Shown piece by piece: positions 4,600 to 30,906 of a stretch of DNA of 64,000 nucleotides; position 1 is the stretch's first letter, and each line of letters begins with the position of its first letter. The DNA lies in assembly GCA_018065085.1 (NCBI GenBank), contig JAGHUA010000031.1, forward strand, positions 2,288 to 66,287, read 5' to 3'. Source of the stretch: Candidatus Liminaster caballi (lineage in GTDB: Bacteria; Bacteroidota; Bacteroidia; Bacteroidales; UBA3663). The notes below the pieces were generated by a model that saw nothing but the letters and a program-made list of their open reading frames with translations, was not told where the DNA came from and searched no databases. The translations under genes were made by a program, and so were the position numbers.

Positions 4600-4633
4600 T
4601 CAATATAAGGATTAAATTATTATTTTACGGATG

Positions 4634-4641
4634 CAAAGGTA
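4634..4641 (-). promoter_or_regulatory. Bacteroidetes -7 box TACCTTTG (minus strand)
   Basis: Plus-strand caaaggta is the reverse complement of TACCTTTG, which matches TAnnTTTG. It sits ~35 nt upstream of the ATG at 4599, inside a 170-nt AT-rich gap. Confidence 0.4.
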
Positions 4642-4768
4642 CGAACTTTTTTTCAGACACAAAGGTTTTGGCAACCCTTGCCATGCCTTTTCCTTCGTGT
4701 ATATTTTAAATAAATCAAAGATTTCAATATATCATATCGGTTAATCGAAAAGAAAGATATTGTTGTTC

Positions 4769-6718: not shown

Positions 6719-6750
6719 ATAATTTATAAATATTGTTTGTGTTCGTGTGT

Positions 6751-8460
6751 TTATTTGTATTTCAATAACTTCTTTAGTACCCCTTGCTGCGCCTCATATC
6801 GGCTGGCATTCTGTTCATTATCTGCTTTGATTTTGTGAACAGAAAGGATTAAGCCTCGGTGACTGTCGTAGAACTTCTTCAAAAGATTCCTGTCGTCTTG
6901 AGAAAAAGTAATCTTTTCAATTTTCTTCTCTTTGAGGCATTTGTTTATTACATCTATTTTATCTTTCGAATCATGTCGATAATAGAAGTTTGTGCCTGGA
7001 ATGCGACTATACAAATCAGGATTGAAGTCCAGCAAGAAATACTTAAGTGTAGCAATGTCAGACATCAGCAAATTATGAAATGCTTCATGGCTTACATGAC
7101 ATATAGCTATCTCGGTTATACTTGCAATGGTGCAGTCCGTACCCACATCCTTTCTGATAAAGAAATCTCCTTGAATAAGTTCGTATCCATCCATAGGATC
7201 ACTCAAGAGCAAAGGCTTGCCATTGTTTCGTTTGCCGTTTCGTTTGCCATATTCAGAATTAAAGTCTGATATCACTTCCGATGGATATCTTTTTCCAATT
7301 CTCTCTGAATACGATATTATAGCATGTGCTGCGGCCTCGTAAAATTTAGAATATACTTCACCTTCTGTTTCCCAAAGGTCAAATGGCACATACTGCTTAC
7401 CATTAGGCGACCATACCACAAATGGTGTGCCGCCTTTTGTACGGGCGAAGACGTCATAAGTGCCAACCATCACACCAAGCTCTGTTTTCTCGTTCACATA
7501 GTCGGCCAATGCCAGTGGCAGTGCTTCCTCGAAAGTCAATCCTGCCTTCTCTTTGTATGTGTAAGATGGTATTCCACAAACAGATGATGTGGCCAACTGT
7601 ATGAGCTGGCGGTTGTTCTCTGTCGAGAGGAAGTTATTTATCAGACGTCGTTCATGAGCGCTTGTAGCCATAATGCTCATGTCAAATTTGTCTTGAACTC
7701 CATCCTTATTTGTATCAGGCAGAGCTGGCAGCTCAAGGCAGCTGACATAGTCGTTCAGGATGACTCGCTCTCTGTCTGACAATTCATTCCCAGCAAGAAG
7801 CGGTTCGATGACTCCATCAAGAATATCCTGATAACTGATGCAGACGAATTTATCACAAGTAGGTTTCTCCTTGGCATTACTAAAATCATCAAGGGTTCTC
7901 GCAGACATTGGCGACAGGTACAAAAAGAATTGATACTTGCCGGTCCCTTTCCCTGCCTTCAATGTCTTGTAATAAGTTTCCGTCTGGCTGTCATGCTCCT
8001 GACTTTGCACTTTATTCTCTATGATAATCTCTATCTCGCTACGACCGCTCTTGACGATGGTGTCCTTCAGTCTGTATCGCAAGTAGATATCAACACGTTC
8101 CTTGCCCCTATATGACTTATTAAGTTTAGACAGTGGCACTTCTGTCTTACACTCTTCAAGTTGCAAGTCCGGAAGGTCACGAGTCAATATAGCAGCCTTC
8201 AAATCCTCTGGAAATTTTTTTGCCTGCTGCCAACTGCGCTCAATGATGATGTCAAGCAAATGAACAATAGGCGATTCCCGACAATCAGAAGCATTATAAG
8301 CCGACAGCAAGTGTGCTATCATCTTGCTATGCGACATTTCATTACGTGCCTTGCCTATCGTATCGAAGATATTCGGACGACTTAAATATTCCAGAACCAG
8401 TGCATTCTCTTGCATATTGCCGTTGAATGCTGCTAACATAGTTTTTAAATTCATGTTCAT
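6751..8460 (-). CDS. PD-(D/E)xK nuclease-family protein (PDDEXK_4-like), paralog B, 569 aa
   Basis: It has NIFDTIGKARNEMSHSKMIAHLL and the core RVDIYLRYRL...EIEIIIENKVQSQEH. Blocks shared with paralog A: CISYQDILD, NDYVSCLELPALPD, IMATS..ER.LI, TPFVVWSP, NFYYR, LILSVHKI. Confidence 0.75.
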   Translation of the reverse strand: MNMNLKTMLAAFNGNMQENALVLEYLSRPNIFDTIGKARNEMSHSKMIAHLLSAYNASDCRESPIVHLLDIIIERSWQQAKKFPEDLKAAILTRDLPDLQLEECKTEVPLSKLNKSYRGKERVDIYLRYRLKDTIVKSGRSEIEIIIENKVQSQEHDSQTETYYKTLKAGKGTGKYQFFLYLSPMSARTLDDFSNAKEKPTCDKFVCISYQDILDGVIEPLLAGNELSDRERVILNDYVSCLELPALPDTNKDGVQDKFDMSIMATSAHERRLINNFLSTENNRQLIQLATSSVCGIPSYTYKEKAGLTFEEALPLALADYVNEKTELGVMVGTYDVFARTKGGTPFVVWSPNGKQYVPFDLWETEGEVYSKFYEAAAHAIISYSERIGKRYPSEVISDFNSEYGKRNGKRNNGKPLLLSDPMDGYELIQGDFFIRKDVGTDCTIASITEIAICHVSHEAFHNLLMSDIATLKYFLLDFNPDLYSRIPGTNFYYRHDSKDKIDVINKCLKEKKIEKITFSQDDRNLLKKFYDSHRGLILSVHKIKADNEQNASRYEAQQGVLKKLLKYK

Positions 8461-9499: not shown

Positions 9500-9533
9500 T
9501 GTCTTATTTCGGATAATTAAAAGTAAGTATACT

Positions 9534-9611
9534 CAAGTTTCGCAAGTTCCTCTTGATTCGGAAGTTAAAGAATTTAAGGAAGTTAAAAGAGTTAAAGACT
9601 TGCGAAACTTG
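9534..9611. repeat. 14-bp perfect inverted repeat enclosing three GAAGTTAAAG-like direct repeats
   Basis: CAAGTTTCGCAAGT (9534-9547) pairs with ACTTGCGAAACTTG (9598-9611). The 50-nt interior contains ggaagttaaag, ggaagttaaaag and agttaaag. Confidence 0.7.
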
Positions 9612-9681
9612 AATTAGTGTATTTCAGAGCTTATCTTCTAAGCAGAGAAAATCAAGGACAGATAGCCTCTGTTGTGAAGCT

Positions 9682-11367
9682 TTAACATTTTTTCAAAGCT
9701 GCCTCTAATAAATTTTTTCTGCCATTAATGAATGTGCTGAAATCAGCTACACCATTCGGTAAAGTTCCTAAGAAATGTGAATCTTGCATTTTTTGTGCAT
9801 CAGAGGCAGACATACCGCCAAGCCAGGCTGCTAGTTCCTGCTTGTTCTTCGAACGGTTGGTACTTGGATCAAGAAGTTCAAGATTGGCAACTGTATCGAA
9901 TGTCACGCCATCACTGGCCAAAGCCTGATCTTTCGGTGTCGTGAACTTGATAATGGAAACATTTGAGAACTGCTGCTTTGGGTGGATATGGTCAACGTCA
10001 TAATCCGTATTTGGCGAGATGCAGCAATTGGTCAGCCCATTGTCATAACCAATCGCATAAGCAATGTTTAAGATCGGGAAAGACTGGGACTTCTTTGTTG
10101 ACAAGGCCTTGTCAATGTCAGAAGGGGTTAACAATGGTTTATAGCAGAACGAAGCTCCGCCTTGCTGAAGTGCTTTGCGAATGTCAGCAAGAGTATTATC
10201 CGTGCCACTCTCAAACAGATTTGTTATGATAGCACGGAACAGATAACTGCGCATGTCATTAAAGATTGTCTGCTGCCCGTTGGTCGAAAGGATGGCGCTA
10301 TTCCAAAGATTGTTCTTATAAATAAAATACACAATCGGAATAACTGCCAACTTGGTGCTCAAGCCCTTTTCATGCATGTGCCAGTCACTTACAAGTTCAA
10401 AGGCTTTCTTAATGCTTGCCCGAACATCTGCTTTGTTGTTATAAATCTCATCAGGTGCGGAACCCGACATAAATACGCCGACATTCGAGTTTAGCGGTTC
10501 ATCGGCCAGCATCACAAAGCACTTAAGCACCCAGTCCTTATCTACCTTATAACCGATCCGCTTGACATCGTCAATGATATCTTCTACAAAACTTCTGGCA
10601 TTTTCTACAGGAGTCTTTGATGACCAATGGGCAGTAAGGGCAGAAAGCAGAAGATCTCCCTTAGACAAAGTGCATCCACCGCTATTGGTACGGACAAAGA
10701 TATCAAGGACAGTATCGATATCATTTGCCGTAATGTTGTAGTAGTTTATAATATCAGTATTATTGAACAATGCCATCAGCTTCATCAAAGTAATCTGAGC
10801 CCATTCATTATTCTGAAGACCAAGCTGATTAATGTAGTGCACAAGATTAAATGCTGGATGGAAAGCCTCCTTGACAAGGAACCATATCTCATTTTTCTGC
10901 TTAACAGAGAGTTGTCGGACATTCATAAACTTGAAATCATACTTCCCATCAGGGTTTGTGCCAGGCTGGTCCAAACGGAGATAAAGTTCCTGCGGAAGTT
11001 GTGCCTTAGGAGTCTTATAAGATCCACACAATGCAATGTAAAGACTGGTAATGCGCTGCTGACCGTCGATCACAACCTTAAAATTCTGAGTCATAGGACA
11101 AGCAGCAGCAACAAATGGCTGATTCATGTTTCCTTCCGTGTAATTTGGATTGAGGAACTGGTAGAAACCAATTGGTTGAGATGGAAGGTTGCATGTATCC
11201 CAAAACATCATGGTATTGATTGGATACTCTTGCATCAAAGAATCAAACAATTGAGCAATATCTTTTCCTTTCCATACATACTCACGCTGTAAGGCAGGTA
11301 AGATTAACTCCTGATTAACTTTACTCAGAATGTCACGAATTGACAAATGTTGAATAGGATAACTCAT
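9682..11367 (-). CDS. DUF262/DUF1524 (GmrSD-like) nuclease, 561 aa
   Basis: DUF262 motifs are ILPALQREYVWKGKDIAQLFDSL and VIDGQQRITSLYIAL. The C-terminal His-Me-type motif is DYDVDHIHPKQ ... NLELLDPSTNRSKNKQ. Confidence 0.8.
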   Translation of the reverse strand: MSYPIQHLSIRDILSKVNQELILPALQREYVWKGKDIAQLFDSLMQEYPINTMMFWDTCNLPSQPIGFYQFLNPNYTEGNMNQPFVAAACPMTQNFKVVIDGQQRITSLYIALCGSYKTPKAQLPQELYLRLDQPGTNPDGKYDFKFMNVRQLSVKQKNEIWFLVKEAFHPAFNLVHYINQLGLQNNEWAQITLMKLMALFNNTDIINYYNITANDIDTVLDIFVRTNSGGCTLSKGDLLLSALTAHWSSKTPVENARSFVEDIIDDVKRIGYKVDKDWVLKCFVMLADEPLNSNVGVFMSGSAPDEIYNNKADVRASIKKAFELVSDWHMHEKGLSTKLAVIPIVYFIYKNNLWNSAILSTNGQQTIFNDMRSYLFRAIITNLFESGTDNTLADIRKALQQGGASFCYKPLLTPSDIDKALSTKKSQSFPILNIAYAIGYDNGLTNCCISPNTDYDVDHIHPKQQFSNVSIIKFTTPKDQALASDGVTFDTVANLELLDPSTNRSKNKQELAAWLGGMSASDAQKMQDSHFLGTLPNGVADFSTFINGRKNLLEAALKKC

Positions 11368-13725: not shown

Positions 13726-15066
13726 CACTAGTGTCCAACAAAAGTTGGAAAGTTGAGTTTGTAAACAACTGATATCCATAAAATCAAGTCTCGATTTTTC
13801 AACCGGAGGATTTGAAATCGCAGCCGAATGATTATCTTTGCGCCCAAATAGCAAAATGAAAGCAAAAGGGCAATAAGATGAACAAAGGCAGATATGTATT
13901 TCGCCAGATGTGCGACTTCCTTCCGTCTGACAAGATTGAATGAATAATAGAGAAATATAACGGAGACCGTTATACAAAGACCTTTTCCTGCTGGCAGCAT
14001 TTGCTGGTAATGATACTAGCTCAGCTGTGGCAATGTAGAAGTCTGAGAGTGCTTGTGAATGTACTGAATTCACAAAAGGCCAAACTCTATCAGATGGGGA
14101 TAGGCAAAGGTGTTAGCCGAAGCACATTGGCTTGGGCAAATGAACATCGAGACTACCGCATCTTCGAAGAGATAGCCAACTTGATGATCAAGATGGCGAG
14201 AGAAGTGAGATCTGGCATATGCCTGGACAAGTTCCTTGATGATAAGGTTGTCTATGCATTCGACTCCTCGACAATCTCTCTTTGTCTTAGTATCTTCAAG
14301 TGGAGCAAGCTACATCATGACAAGGGTGGCATCAAGATGCACTCCTTGTATGAAGTAAAGACTGATGTTCCGGCATTTGTTTACATATCGGATGCCAGTC
14401 TTCATGATTCTAAGGCAATGGTTCAAATTACCTATGAATCAGGCACATTCTATATTTTCGACCGTGCGTACATGGCTCTTTTCAATCTGTATGCAATACA
14501 TCAGTTGGGTGCCTTCTTTGTTGTACGCGAGAAGCGTAATATGCGCTTCAGGTTCGTGGAAGACAAGTATTATAACAATCCTGAATCTGGAATACTTGTC
14601 GACCAATTGATTGAGTTTACAGGATACCTAACCCATAAGCGCTATCCTGAGGTTCTCCGCAGAGTGGTATTCTATGACATTGAAGGTTCTCGCCGATTTG
14701 TCTTCTATACCAATAATCTGCAGGCTACGGCAGAAGGCATTGCCCTCCTTTATAAATATAGATGGAGAGTGGAGCTCTTCTTCAAATGGATCAAACAGCA
14801 TCTATACATCAAAGTGTTTTATGGGACCTCTGAGAATGCTGTGAGAATCCAGATCTATTGTGCTATCATCGCATATTGTCTTGTCGCTATCCTCGAGAGG
14901 AAGATGGAACTCAACATGGATATCTTCTCTGTCCTTCAGATTCTGGAGAAAGGCGCTATCGACAAGACTCCACTTCGGGAACTTTTTGAAAATAGCAAAA
15001 TGTCAGAAACGGACACCCTCGATGATAGCCTTCAACTAACTATTCAATTTTAATTGGACACTAGTG
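13726..15066 (+). mobile_element. IS4-family insertion sequence (~1.34 kb)
   Basis: Terminal inverted repeats are CACTAGTGTCCAA (13726-13738) and TTGGACACTAGTG (15054-15066). They may be flanked by a 3-bp AAT duplication. The element encodes a DDE transposase with the IS4 YREK signature. Confidence 0.8.
13878..15053 (+). pseudogene. IS4-family DDE transposase (DUF4372 N-terminus) with an in-frame TGA
   Basis: ATG 13878 (MNKGRYVFRQMCDFLPSDKIE) is in the same frame as the ORF-track ORF at 14001. A single in-frame TGA at 13941-13943 interrupts it. The YREK signature is YKYRWRVELFFKWIK. Confidence 0.75.
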
Positions 15067-15892: not shown

Positions 15893-16834
15893 CTATTTTA
15901 ATCTCGCAACTCGAGATTCAAGCATCTCTATATATTTTGCTTTTAAGTCGTTATTCAAAAAAGAGTTTTGAACAAAGGCAATGAACGAAGGCAATAGCTT
16001 GATATATTTAGCAATGAGCCTTTCCACAATAATTGCATCAATCTCCAAGCTTTCTGCTGCAAGAATAAAGTCTTCGCGACTAATTCTCTTTTTCTTCCCA
16101 TTCAAAGTCAAAGCGAGTTCTTCGTTATCCTTCGGATTGAGAATAGCGGCATTCAGCAAATCATAAGCTGGGGTCAGTCTTATTGTCTTATATTGAGGTT
16201 CATAGAGCGAGAAGTTCTTCAGATGCATATCATTATTTCCTGTCAACCAGGCAAACAAGACCTCCTCGAAGAAATTGACAACATCCATCTTTGGCACAGA
16301 TGAATGCTGTGCAATGGTCTTTCCAATGCGCTCGTAGCTACTTTTATACTTATGCTCTGTCTGTCGTTGAGTCAACTGGCACATATCCTCCATCGGGAGT
16401 TTATTACCTTTGGCAGTACGGTCAATACGGCGCGAAAGGTAACAAAGCGTGTTATCGGCCATACGCATCAAGGTGTGAGGAACTGTTTCTATGCGAGCCA
16501 ATTCTGCCAGGTGCATTGTAAGATCTTCAACTTCGGGCATCATAGCAAATAACTGTGTCTGAGGTTTACATATATAGCCTCCCCAAAGACCTACAATGGT
16601 CAGTCGCTTTGTTCCTTCGTGATCGTTGAGGTGTAAAGACAACTTGGGTTGTACGCCAGTCAGGGATGTCTGTTCCAAAATAACCTGACCAGCAAGCTCA
16701 TCGAGCTGACTGATTGTATAATCTAATGAAGGGATGCCGTCCGAACCGAAAAACTTCTTAGCACAGGCAGGGTGCATATCGGTCATCCCCTCAGCAAGCG
16801 GACGGTAACAATAGAGACAATTACAAGGCTTCAT
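15893..16834 (-). CDS. HipT-like kinase (HipA C-terminal domains only), 313 aa
   Basis: GVQPKLSLHL and TGNNDMHLKNFSL are HipA kinase motifs. The HipA N-terminal subdomain is missing and is instead encoded by the preceding ORF, with which it shares an ATGA overlap. Confidence 0.85.
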   Translation of the reverse strand: MKPCNCLYCYRPLAEGMTDMHPACAKKFFGSDGIPSLDYTISQLDELAGQVILEQTSLTGVQPKLSLHLNDHEGTKRLTIVGLWGGYICKPQTQLFAMMPEVEDLTMHLAELARIETVPHTLMRMADNTLCYLSRRIDRTAKGNKLPMEDMCQLTQRQTEHKYKSSYERIGKTIAQHSSVPKMDVVNFFEEVLFAWLTGNNDMHLKNFSLYEPQYKTIRLTPAYDLLNAAILNPKDNEELALTLNGKKKRISREDFILAAESLEIDAIIVERLIAKYIKLLPSFIAFVQNSFLNNDLKAKYIEMLESRVARLK

Positions 16835-19755: not shown

Positions 19756-21324
19756 TTATCTGTCAGAAAGAGGATAATAATGAGTCAGGAAATAGGCAAA
19801 CTCAGGCAGACTCCAGTCGCTGAACATGCTATAGCTGTCGTGCACACGAATCAGGAGACCGTTAGTGAGCCTTATGTCACCGTCAGGAGCATATTTGTGA
19901 CGCATCTCGGCATCTGGCACAAGTCGCTGCACGATGACATTGAGCTGCTGATAATCGATAATTGGCAAATAGCGACTCGGATAATAAACCGCCAAAAGAC
20001 GCTGACTAAGAGGAGAATCGCCCATCAGAAGACGTTTCCTGTGCATGTCGTCAACATAGCCATAACCGATAACCTGACTGATACTGCGCCTCATGTCAAG
20101 GCATTCTTCTTCTGAAAGACCACGGCCAAAGCAAGTGGAAACCGGATAAGCGAGCATATCGCCAAGCAGGGGCATCTCGTTGCGCAGGCGGAAACAGAAA
20201 CCCTGCGGATTGCTGATGTCGTAATCGGTTGTGGTCATGCGCAAGATACTATCCGGCCTGAAATCATGGACGAACCGCTGTCTCTGTTCCATACTGAGAG
20301 TGAGTTCATCGGCCATTTTGGGCCTATACTTTGTGAACGACTGAAGTGCGCGAATCAGCTGCATGCGCTGTCCGGGAGTATAGCCGACGGTGAAGCGGTC
20401 AATCTCTTCGTATGGAATGTTGGTACCCTCAACGAAATGCTCGTCTTTAGGCCGCAAGAACAATATGCCACAGACTATTAGCAAAACACAGGCAGCCACA
20501 GCCGACACAACCGGCAAGATATTAGCAGGATGTTCGGCTGAACGAATGAGCCGCAACAATTCGTCGGCATCCGGGATACGTTTGTCAATGGAGAGTGTGC
20601 ATTTGCTGGCAATGTTTCGATAGCGACGACCAACACGTCCGAGACGCTTGTCGGCAAACAGTTCTTTCAGAATGACTCCGAAGCTGTAAATATCAGCACG
20701 CACATCTGTCGAGGCTCCATGATATTGCTCGGGCGCGATGTACTGTGCCGTTCCGGCTGCCTGCTTCAAGATAACATAGACATCTGAGTCGGAGAATCCG
20801 AAGTCGATGATCTTTGGGTTGTTGCCGTTGTCTGTGATGAGGATATTTTCTGGCTTGAGATCGCGATGTACTACCTGCAACGAGTGCATGTAGGCCATGC
20901 CCTCTGCCACCTCGCGTGCAATGCGCTGGGCTCGGGGCAGATAAGTCTCGACCGGCATGTACTGCCCTTCGGTCATGAACTGGCGCAAGGACTTTCCCTG
21001 CACGTATTCCATGACGATGCAGGTGCCAAGCCCTTCGACCTCCTCCAACCCGTAGCACTGAGCAATGTTGGGATGGGTGAGCGAACGATGAAGCTCATAT
21101 TCCTTCTTGAGCATCTGGCGAAACAGAGGAATCCCTGCATAGTCGGGCTTCAGGCCTTTGAGCATGTACCATTTTCCCTCACGGCAGGCTCGGACCAAAC
21201 GGTTATATCCCTGACTGACCACTTCGCTTCGGATTACGAACTGCGAAGAAAGGTCAGCCACGGACTGTCCGTAGTTTTCGTTGTCTATAAAACCTGATAT
21301 CAGGTCATCATCATTGGTTATCAC
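19756..21324 (-). CDS. Membrane-anchored Hanks-type Ser/Thr protein kinase, 522 aa
   Basis: HRDLKPENILI, DFGFS and APEQ motifs are present. One TM helix (ILPVVSAVAACVLLIVCGILFL) is followed by a ~230-aa C-terminal domain. The only available start is GTG 21324, inside the att repeat. Confidence 0.85.
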   Translation of the reverse strand: MITNDDDLISGFIDNENYGQSVADLSSQFVIRSEVVSQGYNRLVRACREGKWYMLKGLKPDYAGIPLFRQMLKKEYELHRSLTHPNIAQCYGLEEVEGLGTCIVMEYVQGKSLRQFMTEGQYMPVETYLPRAQRIAREVAEGMAYMHSLQVVHRDLKPENILITDNGNNPKIIDFGFSDSDVYVILKQAAGTAQYIAPEQYHGASTDVRADIYSFGVILKELFADKRLGRVGRRYRNIASKCTLSIDKRIPDADELLRLIRSAEHPANILPVVSAVAACVLLIVCGILFLRPKDEHFVEGTNIPYEEIDRFTVGYTPGQRMQLIRALQSFTKYRPKMADELTLSMEQRQRFVHDFRPDSILRMTTTDYDISNPQGFCFRLRNEMPLLGDMLAYPVSTCFGRGLSEEECLDMRRSISQVIGYGYVDDMHRKRLLMGDSPLSQRLLAVYYPSRYLPIIDYQQLNVIVQRLVPDAEMRHKYAPDGDIRLTNGLLIRVHDSYSMFSDWSLPEFAYFLTHYYPLSDR

Positions 21325-21510: not shown

Positions 21511-23922
21511 TTAACCGATAACAATTCCTATCTTTTGAGCTATTGAAGTATATATATCTACTTCTGGCACTTCAAGAGAAACGACAAGCGAATACTTAAT
21601 GATACTATCTTTCTTGTTCTTTCTTGATTTCCACCACCCTGTTGCTGGATAAATCGCTATCATATTGCAAGCGGCTATATTGACTGCCGTATCAACAATA
21701 GAATCCGAATGGATACTACCATGATTCCTTCTATTTATGCCGATATCCCATCTAGAAGTATCATTCTTTAGCTTGTCGATACCCTCTTGTGCGACATTAG
21801 AAACCCTTACTTTAAAATGCTCTTCGTCTTCCAATGGTCGATTAACATCAAATCTCAACACAGTTGAAGGATACTTGTATTTATTTAAGACCTCACGATT
21901 TCCAGGAGATGGCTCTACGTAATATGATAATGTTACTTTCAGTTTTACCGACAATTCTCCCAATTCTTGTAATATCTCTTTTGGCCAAGGGAGTTTATAC
22001 AAATGCATTTGAGCAAAAGAAAGTTCAGACGTATTAGCTTTCAAAGTATATGGTTTTATTACTTCTTCGCTAATAAAAGTGACATTAGAATTTGTTGTCA
22101 TTAATGCTTTTTCTCTATTCGGTGTACCATATCCACAAACATGCATCAATGCATCTTTATCGAGGATACCGTCAACATCAGTATAGAGAGTCTTCATTGT
22201 ATCTGTCCATTCTGCAGAATGTACCATCAATGCTCGAATAGAAAGAGCTGATATCCCAGGATTATAGTATTTAATTTCCCCTGCCAATTTGGTCGCCAAA
22301 GCAACGGCAGCACTTGTCGCATTAAATGAACTGAATTTTCTAATAATGGGCTGAGCATTAGTTGAAACCAAATCTAAATCATCATGATAAGAAAAAGAAT
22401 TCTCGCTTTGCCAATACGCATTTCCACCTTCCATCACAATTTCTGGTTTTATCGCATTTGAGTCTCCCCATAGAGAACTTGATGTAGTCATTGGTGATGG
22501 TCCTCCACTAGGAGCAACTATCCTTACACCAGCCATTTGCGGGTCATTCACAGCAACTTTTTGGGTCATTGCCCCAACAGTAAGCGCATTCCAAGCCTGA
22601 GCCGGATCATGCAAGACTTCCGTATCTAGAAAATAAGGGTACTCAAGACCGTTATCATTCCTACGATTGCCAGCAGAAAGCATCAGCATACTATCTGCTT
22701 CAACAGAGTCAAAGAGTTTTTTGTCAATAGCTGCAGAAGTAGCAGTTGCCATACCAGACAAACAATCTTCAGCGGTAACACTACACATCATAATATTACC
22801 CCCTAGATCTATACTACTGTCAATTGCATTTAAGGTAATGACAGCCTTATGTTCTTGGTCTGTCTCTGCTGTCGCTCTATCATGATACATTTTGACAGAA
22901 ACAAGTTCATTGGTAATCGATGAAATTACAGGGCGACAAATAAGCTCAGATAAATCACCATATAGAACTAAACCTGCCGAGAAAGTCCCATGTTTAGCTA
23001 CATCTTTTAGACCTAAAGCCGGATTCTTAACTGATTTGCAGCGATCATTAGGTAAGAAATCTGACAAAAGGGAATGGCTGTTATTCACACCAGAATCTAA
23101 TAAACCTATTCTTGAAAGATGCCCAGCGGCAACCTCTACATTCTGACGAATCAGTTCCTCCCATTCTCGATCTTCAGCCATGGTAGCAGAAGTCAAAACC
23201 GAAGGACAATGATATTTTCTGATTTCTAGGATTGGTTTTACGACATGAATAAGCTGTTCTAACTGACGTTTATTAGCTTTGACTAAAAGTACTTTTTCAT
23301 CTTCAAAAGCCAAAACTCCATTTCCGACAGTCACTTGCAGTTCCTGAATCTTTGTTTTGACTACATCAATATCCGAAGTCGATGGAATCCAAAGCTCATA
23401 GTCTGATACTACATCTGTAACTTGCTCGAACTCTTCTTCATTCTTAAAAAAGGAGGAAAGACTTGTTGCATGAATATCTTTGATGGCGTTTACTATAGCC
23501 GAAGACTTCCTATTTTTCCCTTGATCAGGTTCGACATCATACGCATCTAACTTGTCGTTCATCCAAGAGTCTTTGCTTGCTGGGATAAAAACAGTTGCCA
23601 CAGAGCTATTATCCTCATGTCTCCTTACATTCATGAGTTGGACACATCTCTTAGTATCAAGCTGCTTCCATGATTCCAAAGGAGAGTTTTTGTCCATAGA
23701 AATATCAACGTATGCTCCAGCATTGGCAACAACACCCTGAGGAAGGACTGAACCCGCAGCCTCTCTCAAGGTGTCTAAAGCTGAACAATACGCTAAACGA
23801 AGATTTGCCGAATGTTCCAAAGGATTGGCTGGAGGAACCAGTTTTCCGCCACCTCCACCTTGGCCTTTAAATTCTATCGATTCTGCAAAATCATGTAATG
23901 CTATATGAGGATGATTCGCCAT
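21511..23922 (-). CDS. S8 (subtilisin-family) serine protease, IetS-like, 803 aa
   Basis: Catalytic-triad contexts are IGLLDSGVN (Asp), AKHGTFSAGLV (His) and FNATSAAVALAT (Ser). It has a ~270-aa N-terminal region and starts 11 nt after the ATPase stop. Confidence 0.85.
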   Translation of the reverse strand: MANHPHIALHDFAESIEFKGQGGGGGKLVPPANPLEHSANLRLAYCSALDTLREAAGSVLPQGVVANAGAYVDISMDKNSPLESWKQLDTKRCVQLMNVRRHEDNSSVATVFIPASKDSWMNDKLDAYDVEPDQGKNRKSSAIVNAIKDIHATSLSSFFKNEEEFEQVTDVVSDYELWIPSTSDIDVVKTKIQELQVTVGNGVLAFEDEKVLLVKANKRQLEQLIHVVKPILEIRKYHCPSVLTSATMAEDREWEELIRQNVEVAAGHLSRIGLLDSGVNNSHSLLSDFLPNDRCKSVKNPALGLKDVAKHGTFSAGLVLYGDLSELICRPVISSITNELVSVKMYHDRATAETDQEHKAVITLNAIDSSIDLGGNIMMCSVTAEDCLSGMATATSAAIDKKLFDSVEADSMLMLSAGNRRNDNGLEYPYFLDTEVLHDPAQAWNALTVGAMTQKVAVNDPQMAGVRIVAPSGGPSPMTTSSSLWGDSNAIKPEIVMEGGNAYWQSENSFSYHDDLDLVSTNAQPIIRKFSSFNATSAAVALATKLAGEIKYYNPGISALSIRALMVHSAEWTDTMKTLYTDVDGILDKDALMHVCGYGTPNREKALMTTNSNVTFISEEVIKPYTLKANTSELSFAQMHLYKLPWPKEILQELGELSVKLKVTLSYYVEPSPGNREVLNKYKYPSTVLRFDVNRPLEDEEHFKVRVSNVAQEGIDKLKNDTSRWDIGINRRNHGSIHSDSIVDTAVNIAACNMIAIYPATGWWKSRKNKKDSIIKYSLVVSLEVPEVDIYTSIAQKIGIVIG

Positions 23923-23933
23923 AATATACTATC

Positions 23934-24896
23934 TTAATTTGCATAGGCAAGGTATCTTTGCGCAACAACTGATGAGATTAATTCATAATCCACAATCTTA
24001 TCCATCAGCAAAGATTCCTTCATTACATCACGGCACACAAGGGTAATCTCTGCATGACTCATTTTATCAAATAAAGGAATGATCATTTCTAAACATATCG
24101 AAGCTGGCAAGAAACCGTCCATTTGTCTGAGTATAAGTGCCTCTATTTCTTGCGGGCTTGGCAACTGATAGTTAATCACCTCATCAAATCTACGGAATAA
24201 GGCTTTATCAAGAGATTCAACACTATTGGTTGCAGAAATGATTATACTGTCAGAATCGTCACGTTCCATAAACTGAAGGAAAGAGTTCAATATGCGTCGT
24301 TGTTCTCCAACTTCATTATCTAGACCTCGTTGCGTACCAATGGCATCAAACTCATCAAACAAATAAACACCAGGCTCTTGCGCGATCAAGTCGAAAATCT
24401 TACTTAATTTCAAGCTTGTCTCGCCCATAAATTTAGTTACCACCTTTTCCATAAGAACCACATACAAAGGCAATCTTACTTCATTTGCAATAACAGAGGC
24501 TGTCATCGTTTTGCCTGTTCCAGAAGGTCCTGCAAGGAGAAGTTTTCTTCTGTTTTGGAGACGATATTCTGCCAATTTTTCTTTATGATGATATTCTCTT
24601 ATTACACGATTCACTTTATCTGTTACTGATGATGGCGAAACCAAATCTTTCATAACAAAGCCTTTGTCAACCTCTAAAACCATCTCTGACAACTCTGCAT
24701 TTACTGCGTTCACCCTACGCATCCTCACAGAAAGAACCGGCTTCGCATTAAGTTCCTGCTTAATCGAGGATGACACGACTTTATGTCCCGCCTTTGATTC
24801 TGCAGCAGCAATCTGTGCAGCTATAAGACGGAATCTTTCATCGTCACCAGACATGTGGCTTTTGATAAGTGCTAATATTTGGTCAGAACTAGCCAT
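23934..24896 (-). CDS. AAA+ ATPase (classic AAA, PF00004-like), IetA-like, ~320 aa
   Basis: Walker A is GPSGTGKT, Walker B is VYLFDEFD, and the sensor-1/Arg region is ISATNSVESLDKALFRRFD. The ORF track starts at TTG 24965. I prefer ATG 24896 (MASSDQIL), which lies downstream of a promoter-like box. Confidence 0.85.
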   Translation of the reverse strand: MASSDQILALIKSHMSGDDERFRLIAAQIAAAESKAGHKVVSSSIKQELNAKPVLSVRMRRVNAVNAELSEMVLEVDKGFVMKDLVSPSSVTDKVNRVIREYHHKEKLAEYRLQNRRKLLLAGPSGTGKTMTASVIANEVRLPLYVVLMEKVVTKFMGETSLKLSKIFDLIAQEPGVYLFDEFDAIGTQRGLDNEVGEQRRILNSFLQFMERDDSDSIIISATNSVESLDKALFRRFDEVINYQLPSPQEIEALILRQMDGFLPASICLEMIIPLFDKMSHAEITLVCRDVMKESLLMDKIVDYELISSVVAQRYLAYAN

Positions 24897-24926
24897 AAAC
24901 TCGTAAATCGTATAATTTTTGCTGTG

Positions 24927-24934
24927 CAAAAATA
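24927..24934 (-). promoter_or_regulatory. -7 box TATTTTTG (minus strand) upstream of the ATPase
   Basis: Plus-strand caaaaata, ~30 nt upstream of ATG 24896. Confidence 0.35.
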
Positions 24935-25098
24935 TGCACATCTTCGGACATATCCAAATTTTCAACCAACTTGTTTATTTTTATAATGATTATTTAACCT
25001 CTTTTTGCGCGATTTGGTAATCTTTTTAACAAATAACCAGTAAAAGAAGTGCACTCTCTCTAAAGGACTTCCTTTCCAAAGGCAACTTATCAGAGTTA

Positions 25099-26916
25099 TC
25101 AAAAAATATTCAAACTATCATAATACATTTGTTCTGAAACTACAAGCTCAAAATATGATTTAATAAACGCCTCCATCTCTGGATATTTATTTTTGGGAAT
25201 TTTCGCTTGGACCAGAACCGCTGTGTTATTCAGTTCTTCTTCATATGGAGGGTTCCAGGGCCATTGCAAAGAAAGACCAATAGATTTCCCCTTTACTATA
25301 AAAGAAGTCTGTCCATTGATAAACTTAATATCAAAACAAATCCTCTTTAACTCCCGTGTGAGTTCTTGCTGTAAGTTGGTCCATGTTCCTGTATATTGAG
25401 TTTCTGCTATATTTATATAATGATAGGAGTCATCATGTGAATACTCTCCTACATCAAACATTCCAGAATTCCACATTGTTACAATGTCAAATTCGTATGG
25501 TTTTGATTGAGATAATTTAGAACATGTTTCCCAAATCAGACTTTTCTTAAAATCTGCTTCTAAAACATCTGTGTATTTCTTTCTTTTGGACTTATTTCGC
25601 AAAAGGTAAAATTTTCCACCTCCTGCTGTAGCACATTCTGAAATACATAGATCTTCCCTATTAAATTCTTTTATGGAATTGCTAATTGAAATAAAACGCA
25701 AATATCGATTCAATTTTTTCCAATAGGCATACCTCTTGCCAGACTTGCCTACTGCAATTCCAATCCTACCATGTTCTGATTCGAAATCTTCTAAAGATTG
25801 AGTATTGACAAACTTAAAATGTATAGAACTAGACTGATGATGATACGTACCATTAACTATATTATCATATTCTGTTCGGAGTTTTATATAAACAGGATCA
25901 GTTTCACCCTTTACCATCTTTAGATAATTCAATTTTCCCAATATGATGAGTTTGAAACCTTCCTCTCCTTTATATTCTGAAATATTATTATTTTTTCTAT
26001 ACGAACTATAGGCATCATGCACCCCATACCATTTCCAAATATACAAAATTTGTCTAATGGAACGCACATATTTTCTGCAGAGATTCACTTTCTCGCATAC
26101 AATTAATCCAGTCACTTCTTGCCTTGACCCTCTTTTTTGTAAACGAGTTTTCTTTACATTAATAGTAAATTTCTGATCTGCAATTATTCGATTCAATTCA
26201 TTACAGAAATCACTATTATCCTGAAATACATTATGATTACTACTAAAGGTAATATCATCTGCATATCTTGAATAACACAAACCGAATCGCTTAGCTAATC
26301 CCGTAAGCCTTCTATCTAAAGTATCACAAATAGCGTTTGAGAGCAAAGGAGACGTAGGGGCTCCTTGGGGTAAAATATAATCTGCTGTACTTCGGTTGTT
26401 CTTAATGGACGGTTGCATTTTTACACAACACATTCCTGCAATTGCATTTACTAAAGGTTGCCTAAAATTAAAAGGAGGCAATTGCAACCGTTTCCATACT
26501 CTAGCTTGTTGAATAGATCCAAAAAAATCTTCAAGATCTATGCTATACACATAATTATGACCAATATGGACTTTTGCATTATTTACAATAGACCGTCCGA
26601 CACAAAATGCTGTTGCGAATTCGTTTGGGGTGTACAATGCTTTAAAAACTTCATTTAGGCAATGTAGAATTACCCCCAATCGCACATTCGGAATACATAT
26701 TTGACGTGTTCCACCAGATTTCTTTGGAATGTTAACCAAAGAAAACCTTTTATATGTCAAATTAGGATTTGCATATCGCTTTATGTGGGCGAGTGTGAAA
26801 TCCATTTTACGGATATAAGTTTCCCTATCACTCTTTCTTATATCATCAAGCAACTTATAAAGCGATTCTACATCGGATATTTTGCTTACTCTTGCTACAA
26901 TTTCATTGTTTTCCAT
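25099..26916 (-). CDS. Retron-type reverse transcriptase with ~290-aa C-terminal extension, 605 aa
   Basis: RT motifs are IPKKSGGTRQICIP, NAKVH (NAxxH), LPQGAPTSPLLSN, RYADDITFS and RQEVTGLIV (VTG). The inverted-repeat-flanked ncRNA region ends 6 nt upstream of the ATG. Confidence 0.85.
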   Translation of the reverse strand: MENNEIVARVSKISDVESLYKLLDDIRKSDRETYIRKMDFTLAHIKRYANPNLTYKRFSLVNIPKKSGGTRQICIPNVRLGVILHCLNEVFKALYTPNEFATAFCVGRSIVNNAKVHIGHNYVYSIDLEDFFGSIQQARVWKRLQLPPFNFRQPLVNAIAGMCCVKMQPSIKNNRSTADYILPQGAPTSPLLSNAICDTLDRRLTGLAKRFGLCYSRYADDITFSSNHNVFQDNSDFCNELNRIIADQKFTINVKKTRLQKRGSRQEVTGLIVCEKVNLCRKYVRSIRQILYIWKWYGVHDAYSSYRKNNNISEYKGEEGFKLIILGKLNYLKMVKGETDPVYIKLRTEYDNIVNGTYHHQSSSIHFKFVNTQSLEDFESEHGRIGIAVGKSGKRYAYWKKLNRYLRFISISNSIKEFNREDLCISECATAGGGKFYLLRNKSKRKKYTDVLEADFKKSLIWETCSKLSQSKPYEFDIVTMWNSGMFDVGEYSHDDSYHYINIAETQYTGTWTNLQQELTRELKRICFDIKFINGQTSFIVKGKSIGLSLQWPWNPPYEEELNNTAVLVQAKIPKNKYPEMEAFIKSYFELVVSEQMYYDSLNIF

Positions 26917-26922
26917 AAAAAA

Positions 26923-27083
26923 GACTCCATGAGGTTAGTTAGACTTCTTTTCATTATATCAGACAACCTGGCCATTTTCCCCCTAATCTAGGGTGTTAAA
27001 CATTGCTGCCCGAAACAGAGTCTCGGGAATCTGTCGAATGCAACAGACATTTTCAAAATTATATCTATTAACCTCATGGAGTC
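26923..27083 (-). ncRNA. Candidate retron msr-msd ncRNA
   Basis: A perfect 15-nt inverted repeat (27083-27069 GACTCCATGAGGTTA on the minus strand; 26937-26923 TAACCTCATGGAGTC) encloses 131 nt containing three short hairpins. This is the a1/a2 geometry found directly upstream of a retron RT. Confidence 0.6.
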
Positions 27084-27113
27084 ATTATATGTTGCCAATC
27101 TACAAAAACTCTA

Positions 27114-27121
27114 CAAAAATA
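27114..27121 (-). promoter_or_regulatory. -7 box TATTTTTG (minus strand) upstream of the candidate msr
   Basis: Plus-strand caaaaata, ~30 nt upstream of the a1 repeat. Confidence 0.3.
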
Positions 27122-27590
27122 AAAAAATCTCTATATGCTAAGCAAATAATAGCGCACAAATATAGTTATAATTTTTGACATACTAACACTTTTGAGATAG
27201 AAAATAATTATTGCACATAAGTTGCACAGCAAAACAAGATATGCTAGATAGCAAAATAGAGCCATTTAGAGCCAATAAAAACATATTATGCAACTTTATT
27301 CTTTGCCATGATTCCATCTGATTAGAACTATAAATCCAAATACAGAGATCCAGATATCTAATGTATTTTGTAATAAGTGTGAGTGACGAGTCATAATCTG
27401 AGTTATGTCTCGCCATTCTTTTTTTTGCAATTTACAACATATACCAAGACCGTCGTATAGACTTTCCTACAAACTGCTCATATAATAGTCGATAACAACA
27501 AATGAATAAAGTTATCACATAGCATAACATCAGGGGAGAAGGCGTGAAGACACCCTTGTCCCGCATTATTAACACTAAAATCAATACGAT

Positions 27591-27923
27591 ATGATGGAAG
27601 ATCTACTTGAAAGACTTGACCAGATCAAGATGTTCACTCTTATCGGGTCAAAGAACATGCTCACACATGAAGAAGCTGCATTTTACTTGGGTATATCAAG
27701 CACCCATTTAACGAAACTCAAATCAAACCGCAAAATTCCTTATTATCAGCCTCAGGGGAAAATCTGTTATTTCGACAAGTCTGAACTTGATGAGTGGATG
27801 CGGCAAGGCAAAGTTAAAACTCTGATGGAAGTTGAAAATGATGCATTGGCACACATAGCCAATAAAGGTAAGCTCCCTATAACACTTACCAGAGACTTAT
27901 TCTGTTTAGTTTACATCATCTAA
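27591..27923 (+). CDS. HTH_17 / excisionase-like DNA-binding protein, 110 aa
   Basis: LTHEEAAFYLGISSTHLTKLKSNRKIPYYQPQGKICYFDKSELDEWM is typical of Bacteroidetes mobile-element HTH proteins. It is convergent with the integrase and overlaps its 3' end by 18 nt. Confidence 0.6.
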   Translation: MMEDLLERLDQIKMFTLIGSKNMLTHEEAAFYLGISSTHLTKLKSNRKIPYYQPQGKICYFDKSELDEWMRQGKVKTLMEVENDALAHIANKGKLPITLTRDLFCLVYII

Positions 27924-29108
27924 GACATCATTGAGAAGACTGGCCGCTTGTTTCTTCTTAGAGTCAAGTACCTTGGCATATATCTGTGTCATTCTTGTGT
28001 CTGAGTGTCCAAGCAACTCTGATACGACATAGAGGTCCGCACCTTGTGTAATTAACATCGTGGCATAAGTGTGTCTCGCTGTATGGAATGTGACATGCTT
28101 ATCGATATTAGCTTTCTTTGTCCAATCATGAATATGAAGTTCCAGGGCAGACTTCTGACACAAGTGAAACACTTTGTCAGTGTCAAGTGCATCGCCGCGC
28201 TCAGGAAGCCATCTCATAGCGGGCTTGTCAATAGGTTGGTTGATAAGCTTTTTTGTTTTCTTCATCACAATACTAGCTGTAAGGACCTCTCCATCCTTCT
28301 TTAAGTCTCCCCAAATCATTGCCATAATATCGCTGATACGAAAGCCAGAGAAGCAACTAAAGAGGAAGGCTCGTTTGGTTTCTTTATTCTTACATGGTAC
28401 CTCGACAAGTGCTTTTACCTCATCAATCGAGAGGAATGGTCTTTGCTCAGTACACTGTTTCAAAGTAATATCCATCTTATCAATCGGATTGGCCTTCAAA
28501 TAATCATGTTTCACAGCCCAAGACAAAGCAATGTTCAATACAGCAAAGTAACTGTAGGCAGTTCCTTGTGAGATAGTCTTTGGTTCAACACCCATTTTCC
28601 TTTCCTTTGGTGTTGGCAACTTAAAACGTGTGTCTCTTGCTGTCCTCAAATAGTCTTCAAATCCCTCACAGAAGGCTATATCAACATTACCGATTCTGAT
28701 ACCCTTAAGAGACTTCTCTTCAATGTAGTGATCCAGCATGACCATTGCACACTTGATGAAAATAATGCGAGCTTCACTTTTCTGTTCACTTACTTTCTTA
28801 GCAAGGAAGATCTCCATATAGTCATGCAAAGTAATCTTACTCTTGGATGTCCTTAGTACAAGTCCTGCGGAGTTATAGGAGATGTCTATGATACGTTGAG
28901 ACTTTATAGCGTTAGCAGTTAACAGTGTCTCGTCGTTCTTGTTCTTATCTGACTTAGTCACCTCGGGAATCAAGTATAAGTTCAAAAACTCATAGCTTCT
29001 TACTCCATCCTTATAGATGTCTAAGTAGATATTCTGACTCCCATCGGCCAGTTTTCTAAAACGCAGTCTTACCTGCTCCTTAACTTTACGTTGTTGGTTA
29101 TTTGTCAT
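27906..29108 (-). CDS. Tyrosine site-specific integrase, 400 aa
   Basis: The catalytic region is HTARHTYATMLITQGADLYVVSELLGHSDTRMTQIYAKV. The N-terminal Arm/SAM-like region is typical of Bacteroidetes integrases. Confidence 0.9.
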   Translation of the reverse strand: MTNNQQRKVKEQVRLRFRKLADGSQNIYLDIYKDGVRSYEFLNLYLIPEVTKSDKNKNDETLLTANAIKSQRIIDISYNSAGLVLRTSKSKITLHDYMEIFLAKKVSEQKSEARIIFIKCAMVMLDHYIEEKSLKGIRIGNVDIAFCEGFEDYLRTARDTRFKLPTPKERKMGVEPKTISQGTAYSYFAVLNIALSWAVKHDYLKANPIDKMDITLKQCTEQRPFLSIDEVKALVEVPCKNKETKRAFLFSCFSGFRISDIMAMIWGDLKKDGEVLTASIVMKKTKKLINQPIDKPAMRWLPERGDALDTDKVFHLCQKSALELHIHDWTKKANIDKHVTFHTARHTYATMLITQGADLYVVSELLGHSDTRMTQIYAKVLDSKKKQAASLLNDVLDDVN

Positions 29109-29441
29109 AAATCAATATTTTCATGTTTGTCACTCATGCAAATATACAAGAAAAGTTGTTACTTGTCTATGATTTAAGACTAATTTGCCCAGTTTTCAGT
29201 GTTTTTAGCGTAACAATAAAATAAACGATAAGCGCGTGTATCGGGTGCGAATTGTTAATGATATGTTAATGAGACTTTCATAGGCATGGTCTCTCTATGG
29301 GGTTTGCGACTGAAAATCAATATTTTGAGAAGCGATACTTTTATGTTTTGTTACTCGCTCATTTTTTTGTTGTTTTAACGTTACTTTACACTTCGAGTAA
29401 CAAGCGAACAACAAAAAAGGGTAAGACAAGAGCTAAACAAA

Positions 29442-29476
29442 AGCCAGGAAAGAAGGGTTGAGTTTCTTTCCTGGCT
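29442..29476 (-). terminator. 13-bp perfect hairpin downstream of der, on island DNA
   Basis: AGCCAGGAAAGAA / TTCTTTCCTGGCT with a 9-nt loop and T-rich flanks on both strands. It lies 72 nt after the der stop. Confidence 0.55.
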
Positions 29477-29546
29477 TTTGTCTTGAATATGTAACTTATT
29501 GAAAACCTTTAGTTTGTGAAAACTGGCACTTCAAAAAGCGGTTCAA

Positions 29547-29566
29547 ATCACTTCTCGCGCATGAAG
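29547..29566. repeat. attR: 20-bp direct repeat ATCACTTCTCGCGCATGAAG
   Basis: It covers the last codons and stop of der (FMREK, then TGA). Confidence 0.9.
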
Positions 29567-30906
29567 ATGTTGATCGGTGTGCCGGAGAATTCCCAACGCT
29601 CGCGGATCTTGTTCTCAAGATAACGGCGGTAAGGATCCTTTACCCACTGCGGGAGATTGCAGAAGAAGGCAAATGAAGGAACCTGCGGCACGTTGACATG
29701 CTCTTCGTGGCTCTTGTCATCGCTGACGGTTGTTGTGGCCTTGAGCTGGGTGACATACTTGATCTTGACGAACTTGCCCTTGTTGTTAGGCGGCGGATAG
29801 GCTCCGATAACTTCGAGCATATACTCGTTGAGCTCGGATGTCTTGATGACACGCTTGCGGTTCTCATAGACCTTGCAGGCTGTCTCGATAACCTTGTAGA
29901 TGCGCTGCTTGGTGACGGCTGAGGCGAAGATGATAGGGAAGTCGGTGAAAGGAGCAAAACGGCTGCGGATGGCGTCCTCCATGCACTTGACAGACTCCTT
30001 TGACTTGTCGGCCATGATGTCCCACTTGTTGACACACACCACAAGACCCTTGCGGTTCTTCTCGATGAGCGAGAAAATGTTCATATCCTGTGCCTCAATG
30101 CCTCGGGTGGCATCGATCATAAGGATGCAGACGTCTGAGTTCTCGATGGCACGGATGGAACGGAGCACGGAATAATACTCGATGTCCTCGCTGACCTTCT
30201 GCTTTTTGCGGATACCGGCTGTATCGACAAGATAGAATGCGAAACCGAACTTGTCGTACTTGGTATAGATGGAATCGCGTGTAGTGCCTGCAATGTCGGT
30301 GACGATGTGACGTTCCTCGCCCATAAAGGCGTTGAGAAGCGATGACTTGCCAGCATTTGGACGACCTACGATGGCGAACTTTGGCAGATCCTCAAGATCG
30401 TCGGAATCATCTTTCTTGAAACGCGAACAGATCTCGTCGAGCAGATCGCCTGTGCCCGAACCATTGGCAGACGAGATGATGAACGGATCGCCAAGACCAA
30501 GCGAATAGAACTCGGCGGCATAGACGTGCTGGTCGTAGTTGTCGGCCTTATTGCAGACAACGATTACCTCCTTGCCTGATTTGCGCAGGATGCGTGCCAC
30601 CTGATCGTCGAGGTCGGTGACGCCATTCATGATATCGACAAGGAACAGGATGACGTCGGCCTCGTCGATGGCAATCTCGACCTGCTTGTTGATCTCATCC
30701 TCGAAAATGTCTTCTGAATTGACCACCCATCCGCCTGTATCGACAAGACTGAACTCACGGCCTCCCCAAAGTACATGACCATACTGACGGTCGCGTGTGG
30801 TGCCTGCGGTGTCGCTGACGATGGCTGTACGGGTCTCGGTCAAACGGTTGAAAAGGGTCGATTTGCCTACATTAGGACGACCCACAATAGCTACTAAATT
30901 TCCCAT
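29548..30906 (-). CDS. der: Ribosome-associated GTPase Der (EngA)
   Basis: Two tandem GTPase domains ([16 protein letters not shown] and [16 protein letters not shown]) plus a KH-like C-terminus. Confidence 0.95.

Follow-up and report, generated by a model that had tools for sequence, protein, structure and literature searches.

We analysed a 64,000-nt stretch of DNA from Candidatus Liminaster caballi (contig JAGHUA010000031.1, positions 2,288 to 66,287; the window, below), in which a minus-strand open reading frame (ORF) for a retron-type reverse transcriptase (RT) is preceded by a structured segment, 26923-27083, with the appearance of a retron msr-msd gene, that is, one for a non-coding RNA (ncRNA) from which an RT would copy multicopy single-stranded DNA (msDNA). 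Listed in the direction of the minus strand, the features of this locus are the following.

27114-27121, minus strand: candidate Bacteroidetes-type -7 box TATTTTTG (consensus TAnnTTTG), a motif match.
27069-27083, minus strand: a1, the 5' arm GACUCCAUGAGGUUA, an exact repeat with outward pairing to 27086 that includes one mismatch; in relatives the position is kept and the arm sequence is locus-specific.
27063-27067, minus strand: 5' strand of the extension helix, UAGAU, which contains G27065 and pairs with 26940-26944 in the minimum free energy (MFE) fold.
27053-27059, minus strand: 5' motif AUUUUGA, from alignments A2 and A3 and an anchored sequence listing; G27054 is invariant in all members examined.
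27029-27048, minus strand: msr hairpin 1, GUCUGUUG-CAUU-CGACAGAU, 8 bp, from the MFE fold and covariation.
27009-27027, minus strand: msr hairpin 2, CCCGAGAC-UCU-GUUUCGGG, 8 bp, from the MFE fold and per-locus folding of relatives.
27000-27005, minus strand: CAAUGU motif (family consensus AUAAACAAUGU), conserved in A2 and A3, the likely msr/msd boundary.
26953-26999, minus strand: putative msd template of about 45-50 nt, a variable stretch with approximate boundaries, whose sole small hairpin is CCCUA-GAU-UAGGG (26981-26993).
26947-26959, minus strand: 3' motif AUAUAAUGAAAAG (family consensus ACAUAAAGAAAAG), immediately preceding the helices on the a2 side in 21/21 loci; G26952 is the putative first templated nucleotide.
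26940-26944, minus strand: 3' strand of the extension helix, GUCUA, from the MFE fold.
26923-26937, minus strand: a2, the 3' arm UAACCUCAUGGAGUC, an exact repeat, followed by U6 (26922-26917) and the RT start codon.
25099-26916, minus strand: retron-type RT ORF of 605 aa, with the RT domain at about aa 36-357, a helix-plus-beta-sheet module at about aa 322-440 and an extension at aa 441-605.

The outermost of these features is an inverted repeat. Read on the minus strand, the arms GACTCCATGAGGTTA (27083-27069) and TAACCTCATGGAGTC (26937-26923) are exact complements over 15 nt, with 131 nt between them, and when lengthened they form an 18-nt repeat at 94% complementarity with one mismatch (26920-26937 and 27069-27086). 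Downstream of a2, TTTTTT (26922-26917) fills the 6-nt gap to the ATG at 26916 of the 605-aa ORF. The initial annotation of this DNA had described the same succession of repeat, 131-nt interior, T tract and RT start codon, and had placed all of them where we find them. Base composition alone predicts about 0.02 exact 15-nt inverted repeats (spacing 30-300 nt) per 64-kb window, or 5e-5 per 330-nt upstream region, and when the local 664 nt were shuffled 200 times, the longest exact inverted repeat had a mean length of 8.8 nt and a maximum of 13 nt, as against the 15 nt observed. Exact inverted repeats of at least 15 nt occur at four distinct loci in the window, and solely at the RT locus does the spacer exceed 50 nt. 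The other exact 15-nt repeat with a sizeable spacer (50 nt), at 9533-9547 and 9598-9612, lies 3' of a GmrSD-like ORF (9682-11367, minus strand). With a tyrosine integrase and an excisionase-like gene 1 kb away, in an island of defence and toxin genes, the repeat at the RT might be thought to belong elsewhere, as the termini of a small mobile element or as a recombination site of the adjacent integrase, or to have arisen by chance. We regard this as extremely improbable: chance is excluded by the expectation and the shuffles, no second copy of the arm sequence is found elsewhere in the 64-kb window, and the same arrangement, with differing arm sequences, stands beside RT homologues in unrelated contexts.

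These homologues number in the thousands at 45-53% identity and come mainly from Bacteroidales metagenome-assembled genomes, the nearest from Muribaculaceae, Prevotellaceae and other Bacteroidales. The sample that we compared consisted of 80 genomic loci, the contigs of the three closest proteins and 80 loci from a viral collection; the RTs in the upstream comparison are 32-51% identical to that of the window and mostly from Bacteroidota. When the 330 nt upstream of the RT were searched in the 25 closest loci, about 20 of them had a best inverted repeat with the 3' arm 6-32 nt before the ATG and with arms of 10-19 nt that differ in sequence from locus to locus. The closing stem was assayed as a duplex between the 55 nt located 5' of the conserved core and the 75 nt before the ATG, in cognate and non-cognate pairs: the means were -32.2 kcal/mol and -16.5 kcal/mol, respectively, and the cognate median was reached by 0.7% of the non-cognate pairs. 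Compared with shuffles, the duplexes were more stable in 17/18 loci (z-scores of -2.0 to -9.7), and the sole failing locus, L085, has a mis-called start codon. The initial annotation had likened the repeat to the classical a1/a2 geometry of retrons and had proposed that compensatory changes be sought upstream of homologous RTs. The likeness is supported by the presence of a repeat at the equivalent site in the relatives, with different arm sequences, and the proposed comparison came out positive, the cognate flanks pairing specifically in those 17 loci.

The MFE fold of 26917-27090 (minus strand) reaches -58.7 kcal/mol (z = -5.45; 0/200 shuffles folded equally well) and holds the closing stem, the 5-bp extension UAGAU/GUCUA and three hairpins. 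All three had been picked out by eye beforehand, and two of them (27029-27048 and 27009-27027) proved to be the conserved, covarying msr hairpins of the family. The architecture common to the relatives is a1, more helices, AUUUUGA, hairpin 1, hairpin 2, AUAAACAAUGU, a variable part, ACAUAAAGAAAAG, the partner strands of the helices, and a2; in the window, the elements run in the order AUUUUGA (27059-27053), hairpin 1 (27048-27029), hairpin 2 (27027-27009), CAAUGU (27005-27000) and AUAUAAUGAAAAG (26959-26947). Second helices equivalent to the extension occur in relatives (for example, AGAGGA/UCCUCU in L081), the element conserved after both hairpins reads (A)ACAAUGU, and the UUUU of the 5' motif (27058-27055) is able to pair with AAAA (26951-26948). 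Across the relatives, hairpin 1 has both-sided changes in 6/9 pairs and 92.9% of cells paired, a result reached by 0/500 shuffles. MAFFT and RNAalifold applied to the msr core recovered hairpin 1 and mis-aligned hairpin 2, of which a covariance-model realignment retained 3 pairs, with 62.7% of cells paired. Because both procedures aligned it poorly, hairpin 2 was tested by per-locus folding against shuffles: it is formed in every related locus, with a differing stem sequence and a mean z of -3.6. A search of both strands of 726 kb with R1, a covariance model of the core, yielded 19 matches with E<1, every one of them located 100-340 nt upstream of an RT start and on the same strand as the RT, with six sites outside the seed; the model also matches upstream of RTs on two IMG/VR contigs. 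Hence, among homologues, the a1/a2 arms and the msr hairpins keep their positions and show covariation. A comparison at the strain level, with metagenome contigs 97-99% identical to the window, shows hairpin 1 kept paired in the variants, by a change from U.G to C-G at 27042 and from U-A to U.G at 27030, and indels and substitutions clustered in the variable part, at 26972-26977.

Several related loci have features of their own. L016:3736-7469 contains tandem retrons, with RTs at 4001-5476 and 5880-7469, each of which has its own upstream match to the core model (3736-3805 and 5693-5764). RTs of this family that have the ncRNA core upstream are present on IMG/VR (pro)phage-like contigs (L092:2843-2915 and L094:2759-2868), so the family is borne by mobile or viral elements too. 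In two of the closest relatives, the RT is preceded by 1.1-1.5 kb devoid of genes (L081:2887-4001 and L083:1467-3022), of which the last ~170 nt are the ncRNA.

The sole domain recognised by Pfam in the RT is RVT_1 (6e-22). Its best PADLOC models are RT-Protease_XI (2e-93, covering positions 16-325 of the 510 in the hidden Markov model, HMM), then RT-TIR_XII and RT-Toprim_I-C, and because these profile matches end with the RT part (residues 36-357), we conclude that protease, TIR and Toprim domains are absent from the protein. The 25 best PADLOC matches are all retron RT models; the closest solved structures are likewise all retron RTs, with Ec67/Eco2 first (4e-32); and the motifs N113-A114-K-V-H117 (NAxxH), Y218-A-D-D221 (YADD) and V268-T269-G270 (VTG) are invariant in alignment A1 with 23 relatives. 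Judged by profile, closest structures and motifs, the protein is a retron RT. Defence RTs templated by structured upstream ncRNAs are also known, and the segment could in principle be a template for non-retron defence reverse transcription of that kind, producing repetitive or concatemeric complementary DNA as DRT2 and DRT9 do, with no 2'-5' branched msDNA; the C-terminal modules of the RT, which have no fold match, would be compatible with it. We find this distinctly unlikely in the face of the uniform profile and structural matches to retron RTs, of a covarying a1/a2 closing-stem geometry that is a hallmark of retrons, and of the ordinary RT-DNA produced by the clade 8 relatives (Eco2, types XI and XII).

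Beyond the RT domain, the protein carries ~250 extra C-terminal residues in two modules, the first of which (aa ~322-440) is conserved in the family. The second, aa 441-605 (165 aa), retrieved by exhaustive phmmer five relatives among 1.8 billion representative proteins, none of them annotated; they include a C-terminal fragment of another family RT and a stand-alone 226-aa protein from an unrelated context. AlphaFold2 models of both modules are confident, with predicted local distance difference test values of 83-85. Foldseek searches of the PDB with aa 441-605 and aa 322-450 gave no significant match (best E 0.36-0.48, template modelling score ~0.2), and weak START/Bet v1-like top matches were rejected as evidence. 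A PDB sequence search of the C-terminal region and a word-indexed homologue search with aa 430-605 yielded no match either, and hhalign found the C-terminus of the window RT unrelated to the conserved downstream protein of relatives (alignment A4). The effector would most likely reside within these C-terminal modules. One may further entertain, as a speculative and rather doubtful possibility, that the window and loci L081, L083 and L085 form a minimal type XI-like sub-lineage, consisting of RT and ncRNA without a partner gene and with an essentially unstructured msDNA of ~45-60 nt, in which the 165-aa orphan domain of the window would be a new kind of effector or sensor module.

The extent of the msd template can be estimated by comparison with type XI retrons from Pseudomonas, for which RT-DNAs of 68 nt (retron 1235) and 59 nt (retron 1278) have been sequenced (PMC10849725 supplement). 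The template of retron 1278 extends from just after CCAAUGCAA to the G of UAAAAGAG, with AAAAUGA and a2 following (PMC10849725 supplement sequences). The window matches these contexts with CAAUGU (27005-27000) and with AUAAUG followed by AAAAG (G26952 ends the first of the two), from which an msDNA of ~45-50 nt is predicted, with approximately the plus-strand sequence of 26952-26998 and probably nearly unstructured. Its 5' end is predicted to be complementary to G26952, with the plus-strand sequence CATTATATCAG..., and its 3' end to fall near 26995-27000; reverse transcription would stop a few nucleotides 3' of CAAUGU on the RNA. Only the local motif contexts were used, as global pairwise alignments between the window ncRNA and type XI ncRNAs of proteobacteria proved unreliable and were discarded. 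By approximate template length, the window is the shortest of 18 loci; the others have 55-180 nt, and the closest relatives 55-67 nt. Folded as DNA, the putative msDNA strand (26952-27006, plus strand) gives -3.5 kcal/mol (z = 0.13), in agreement with the earlier remark that there is no long msd hairpin. It had been added that a short or atypical msDNA would itself be unusual, which holds, but not in the sense of lacking precedent, given the lengths in the closest relatives and in the sequenced type XI RT-DNAs.

A short, unstructured msd-equivalent stretch would also suit an RNA that serves the RT mRNA as a conserved 5' leader or regulatory element, acting on translation, stability or RT binding in a lineage that no longer makes msDNA. 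With just 6 nt between a2 and the ATG, the closing stem could block the initiation of translation, and msDNA has been shown for no member of the Bacteroidota lineage described below, whose structures are termed computational predictions in the preprint. Yet the RT retains the catalytic YADD along with the retron-specific NAxxH and VTG, the family motifs are similar to those at which template start and end were mapped by experiment in a type XI retron, and the variable region changes length freely between conserved boundaries, as an msd would; we therefore hold a purely regulatory role to be unlikely.

Two nucleotides come into question for the branching G. We lean, by a modest preference, towards G27054, which is invariant in the family and directly follows the possible UUUU:AAAA helix, opposite the putative template start. 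The initial annotation had proposed G27065; it is indeed the first G after a1, but it lies inside the 5-bp extension helix and its register is not fixed in the family, in contrast to the invariant G27054, and we consider it an unlikely, second-placed candidate. In favour of a G such as 27065, the branching G15 of Eco2 precedes AUUUG (GGCAG followed by AUUUG, with the branch at the last G of GGCAG), and proteobacterial types XI and XII have no G after UUU.

A promoter is suggested by the box at 27114-27121. TAnnTTTG is the promoter consensus of Bacteroides, and the box in the window ends 59 nt before G27054 and ~30 nt before a1; transcription is predicted to begin at about 27104-27110. When the search was anchored on the invariant G (anchoring on duplex starts had been noisy), an exact TAnnTTTG box ending 28-59 nt upstream of it was found in 18/21 related loci, compared with ~1.2 expected from motif density. 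This search replaced a sigma-70 promoter scan because the sigma-70 model is unsuited to Bacteroidetes: its match lay inside the ncRNA, and its sites were no more frequent than in shuffles.

Taken as a whole, the evidence leads us to assign a probability of about 85% to the interpretation that 26923-27083 (minus strand) is a retron msr-msd ncRNA gene and that the ORF at 25099-26916 is its RT, protease-less and type XI-like (clade 8), of the TXI_C2like lineage. From the arrangement we infer how the locus would be transcribed, which G would branch, where the msDNA would begin and end, what defence function it would have and what would act as effector. A Bacteroidetes-type promoter just upstream would yield a single transcript of ncRNA and RT. 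The RNA would be closed by the a1/a2 arms and the 5-bp extension helix, and the two conserved msr hairpins would form the recognition handle for the RT. The primer would be the 2'-OH of a G at the closing helices' inner end, with G27054 and G27065 as candidates; copying would start near G26952 of AUAAUG/AAAAG and head toward CAAUGU, and the resulting msDNA of ~45-50 nt, largely unstructured, would stay bound to the RT. As in other retrons, the RT-msDNA complex may act as a phage sensor that restrains an effector, which would most likely lie within the C-terminal modules of the RT.

Several observations weigh against this interpretation. A strain variant in run X3, ~97-98% identical to the window, differs at the a1/a2-end positions 27070, 27071 and 26924 without compensation; it keeps a 10-bp stem core and gains one outer pair (27084/26922, through a change at 27084). 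With the end changes uncompensated and the core intact, the stem core is retained, and the 15-nt perfection is strain-specific and not in itself strictly selected. Most characterised retrons have a stable msd stem, which is lacking here. No RNA-seq run with the window sequence was found, the sequence being contained in DNA assemblies or assemblies of unknown type only, and an Rfam scan of 24000-30000 with E up to 10 gave no match at the element. The stem tests take stems and duplexes found in each sequence, and as such they show locus-specific complementarity, not formal significance of the R-scape type. Since the window is among the 13 seed sequences of R1, its own score of 56.7 bits is by construction. 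Finally, Pfam, PADLOC and the neighbourhood comparison recognised no protease, Toprim, TIR, WYL or conserved downstream partner at the window locus.

Comparison with known systems places the locus near the retrons of RT clade 8, which comprises types I-C, XI and XII (Mestre et al. 2020, PMC7736814). According to Toro (10.64898/2026.05.14.725207), type XI was left without an ncRNA model by Mestre et al. 2020 (PMC7736814); Khan et al. (PMC10849725) report having validated type XI ncRNAs. The TXI_C2like group has recently been described as protease-less, Bacteroidota-only type XI-like retrons with variable C-terminal extensions (Toro, bioRxiv 2026, 10.64898/2026.05.14.725207), with WYL proteins within +/-2 genes in 37% of loci and with a predicted ncRNA, computational only, that lies 38-388 bp upstream of the RT and has three stem-loops between a1 and a2 (10.64898/2026.05.14.725207). 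The window RT resembles this group in scoring best with type XI profiles without having a protease; its ncRNA, upstream of the RT and with three stem-loops and a1/a2 flanks, matches by description; and its relatives are from Bacteroidota, many of them with a WYL protein one or two genes away (e.g. L001). It departs from the group in having neither a nearby WYL protein, a non-obligatory trait, nor the ~297-aa downstream partner of 14 related loci, as well as in the 165-aa orphan C-terminal domain of its RT and the shortest msd of the set. Membership in TXI_C2like is a fit by description.

Canonical type XI retrons (RT plus trypsin-like protease, PMC7736814) provide the best profile match to the RT domain and share an ncRNA closed by a1/a2, a U-rich motif that follows a1, an msr/msd boundary with a CAAUG-type motif, an A-rich template start (AAAG followed by AAAA) and a short RT-DNA, 59-68 nt there versus ~45-50 nt predicted here. 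The window RT differs from them in having no protease and in its host phylum, and the ncRNA has two msr hairpins instead of one and a G after UUUU, where proteobacterial ncRNAs read UUUAAC. Retron-Eco2 (Ec67, type I-C1, RT-Toprim) is the closest solved structure to the window RT, is a single-protein retron with an effector fused C-terminally to the RT, as the window retron may be, and has an ncRNA in which a1 is followed by the branching G and AUUUG, a hairpin and ...AAUGG, the G-AUUUG sequence being found also in other clade 8 retrons. Unlike Eco2, the window RT has no Toprim domain; the msDNA of Eco2 is 67 nt long and stem-forming; and its G15 precedes AUUUG, whereas in the window family the G at that place is not fixed and the G after UUUU is invariant. 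From type XII, the window RT is distinguished by having no TIR domain (Pfam, PADLOC).

The genes next to the RT in its relatives are consistent with the TXI_C2like description. Encoded in related loci are a WYL protein, a WG-repeat protein and a ~297-aa protein without annotation, and a subgroup has instead HisKin-conflict and iREC genes; the window, L081, L083 and L085 have none of these neighbours, and no gene neighbours conserved across the closest loci were found. At L001:5484-6377 and at 13 further loci (alignment A4), the gene for the ~297-aa protein comes straight after that of the RT, whose stop codon it overlaps or abuts. The protein contains a conserved RNxxNHRG, an Rx4H pattern as in HEPN RNases, and has no Pfam, PADLOC or PDB sequence match; it possibly corresponds to the preprint's 'AC006' cluster and serves these retrons as effector. 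In the subgroup (L011-L014, L018 and L019; e.g. L011:5683-9264), the RT is followed by a HisKin-conflict histidine-kinase-like gene, a ~200-aa gene and an iREC (inactive receiver) protein.

Downstream of the window RT, on the minus strand, lie an IetA-like AAA ATPase (23934-24965; likely true start M24, near 24896) and an IetS-like S8 subtilase (21511-23922), which together make up a complete two-gene Iet defence system. They were rejected as retron effector and are treated as a separate system, because the pair never recurs beside RT homologues (0/24 related loci have an IetA/IetS homologue near the RT) and the RT stop and the likely IetA start are ~200 nt apart. The segment of the window between ~9.6 and 29.1 kb, which carries defence and toxin genes and has a tyrosine integrase at its border, resembles an integrated island and includes, apart from the retron and Iet genes, the following.

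9682-11367, minus strand: GmrSD_N protein.
14001-15053: DDE transposase of an insertion sequence.
15893-16834: HipA_C protein.
19756-21324: Ser/Thr protein kinase.
27591-27923: HTH_17 excisionase-like gene.
27906-29108: tyrosine integrase, at the end of the island.
29548-30906: der/EngA, adjoining the island.

There are no tRNA genes in the 64-kb window. An 18-bp terminator-like hairpin at 29437-29481, between der and the integrase end of the island, may mark the island boundary; it is also the source of the spurious Rfam matches SNORA26, SpF43 and mir-3910, the matches elsewhere in 24000-30000 being to snoRNA and miRNA families and discarded as spurious. A 77-aa ORF between the excisionase-like gene and the retron promoter region (27183-27416, minus strand) has no Pfam match and is probably not a gene; within it, the X3 variant has 110 nt (27196-27305) replaced by ~100 other letters.

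Following the Pseudomonas RT-DNAs and the Bacteroidota ncRNA predictions of 2026, the locus is an independent and well-delimited example, a new member of the recently described lineage that is set apart by its short msd and by a fused C-terminal domain without a fold match. The family comparison adds explicit boundary motifs, namely AUUUUGA, CAAUGU and ACAUAAAG followed by AAAAG, which are tied to the mapped template ends of a type XI retron, and through this link the msDNA of a gut-Bacteroidales retron family becomes predictable to within a few nucleotides. With its short, unstructured msd and compact RT, the system could serve retron-based DNA production in Bacteroides, and the C-terminal modules of the RT are candidates for a new effector in what would otherwise be an ordinary retron in a defence island.

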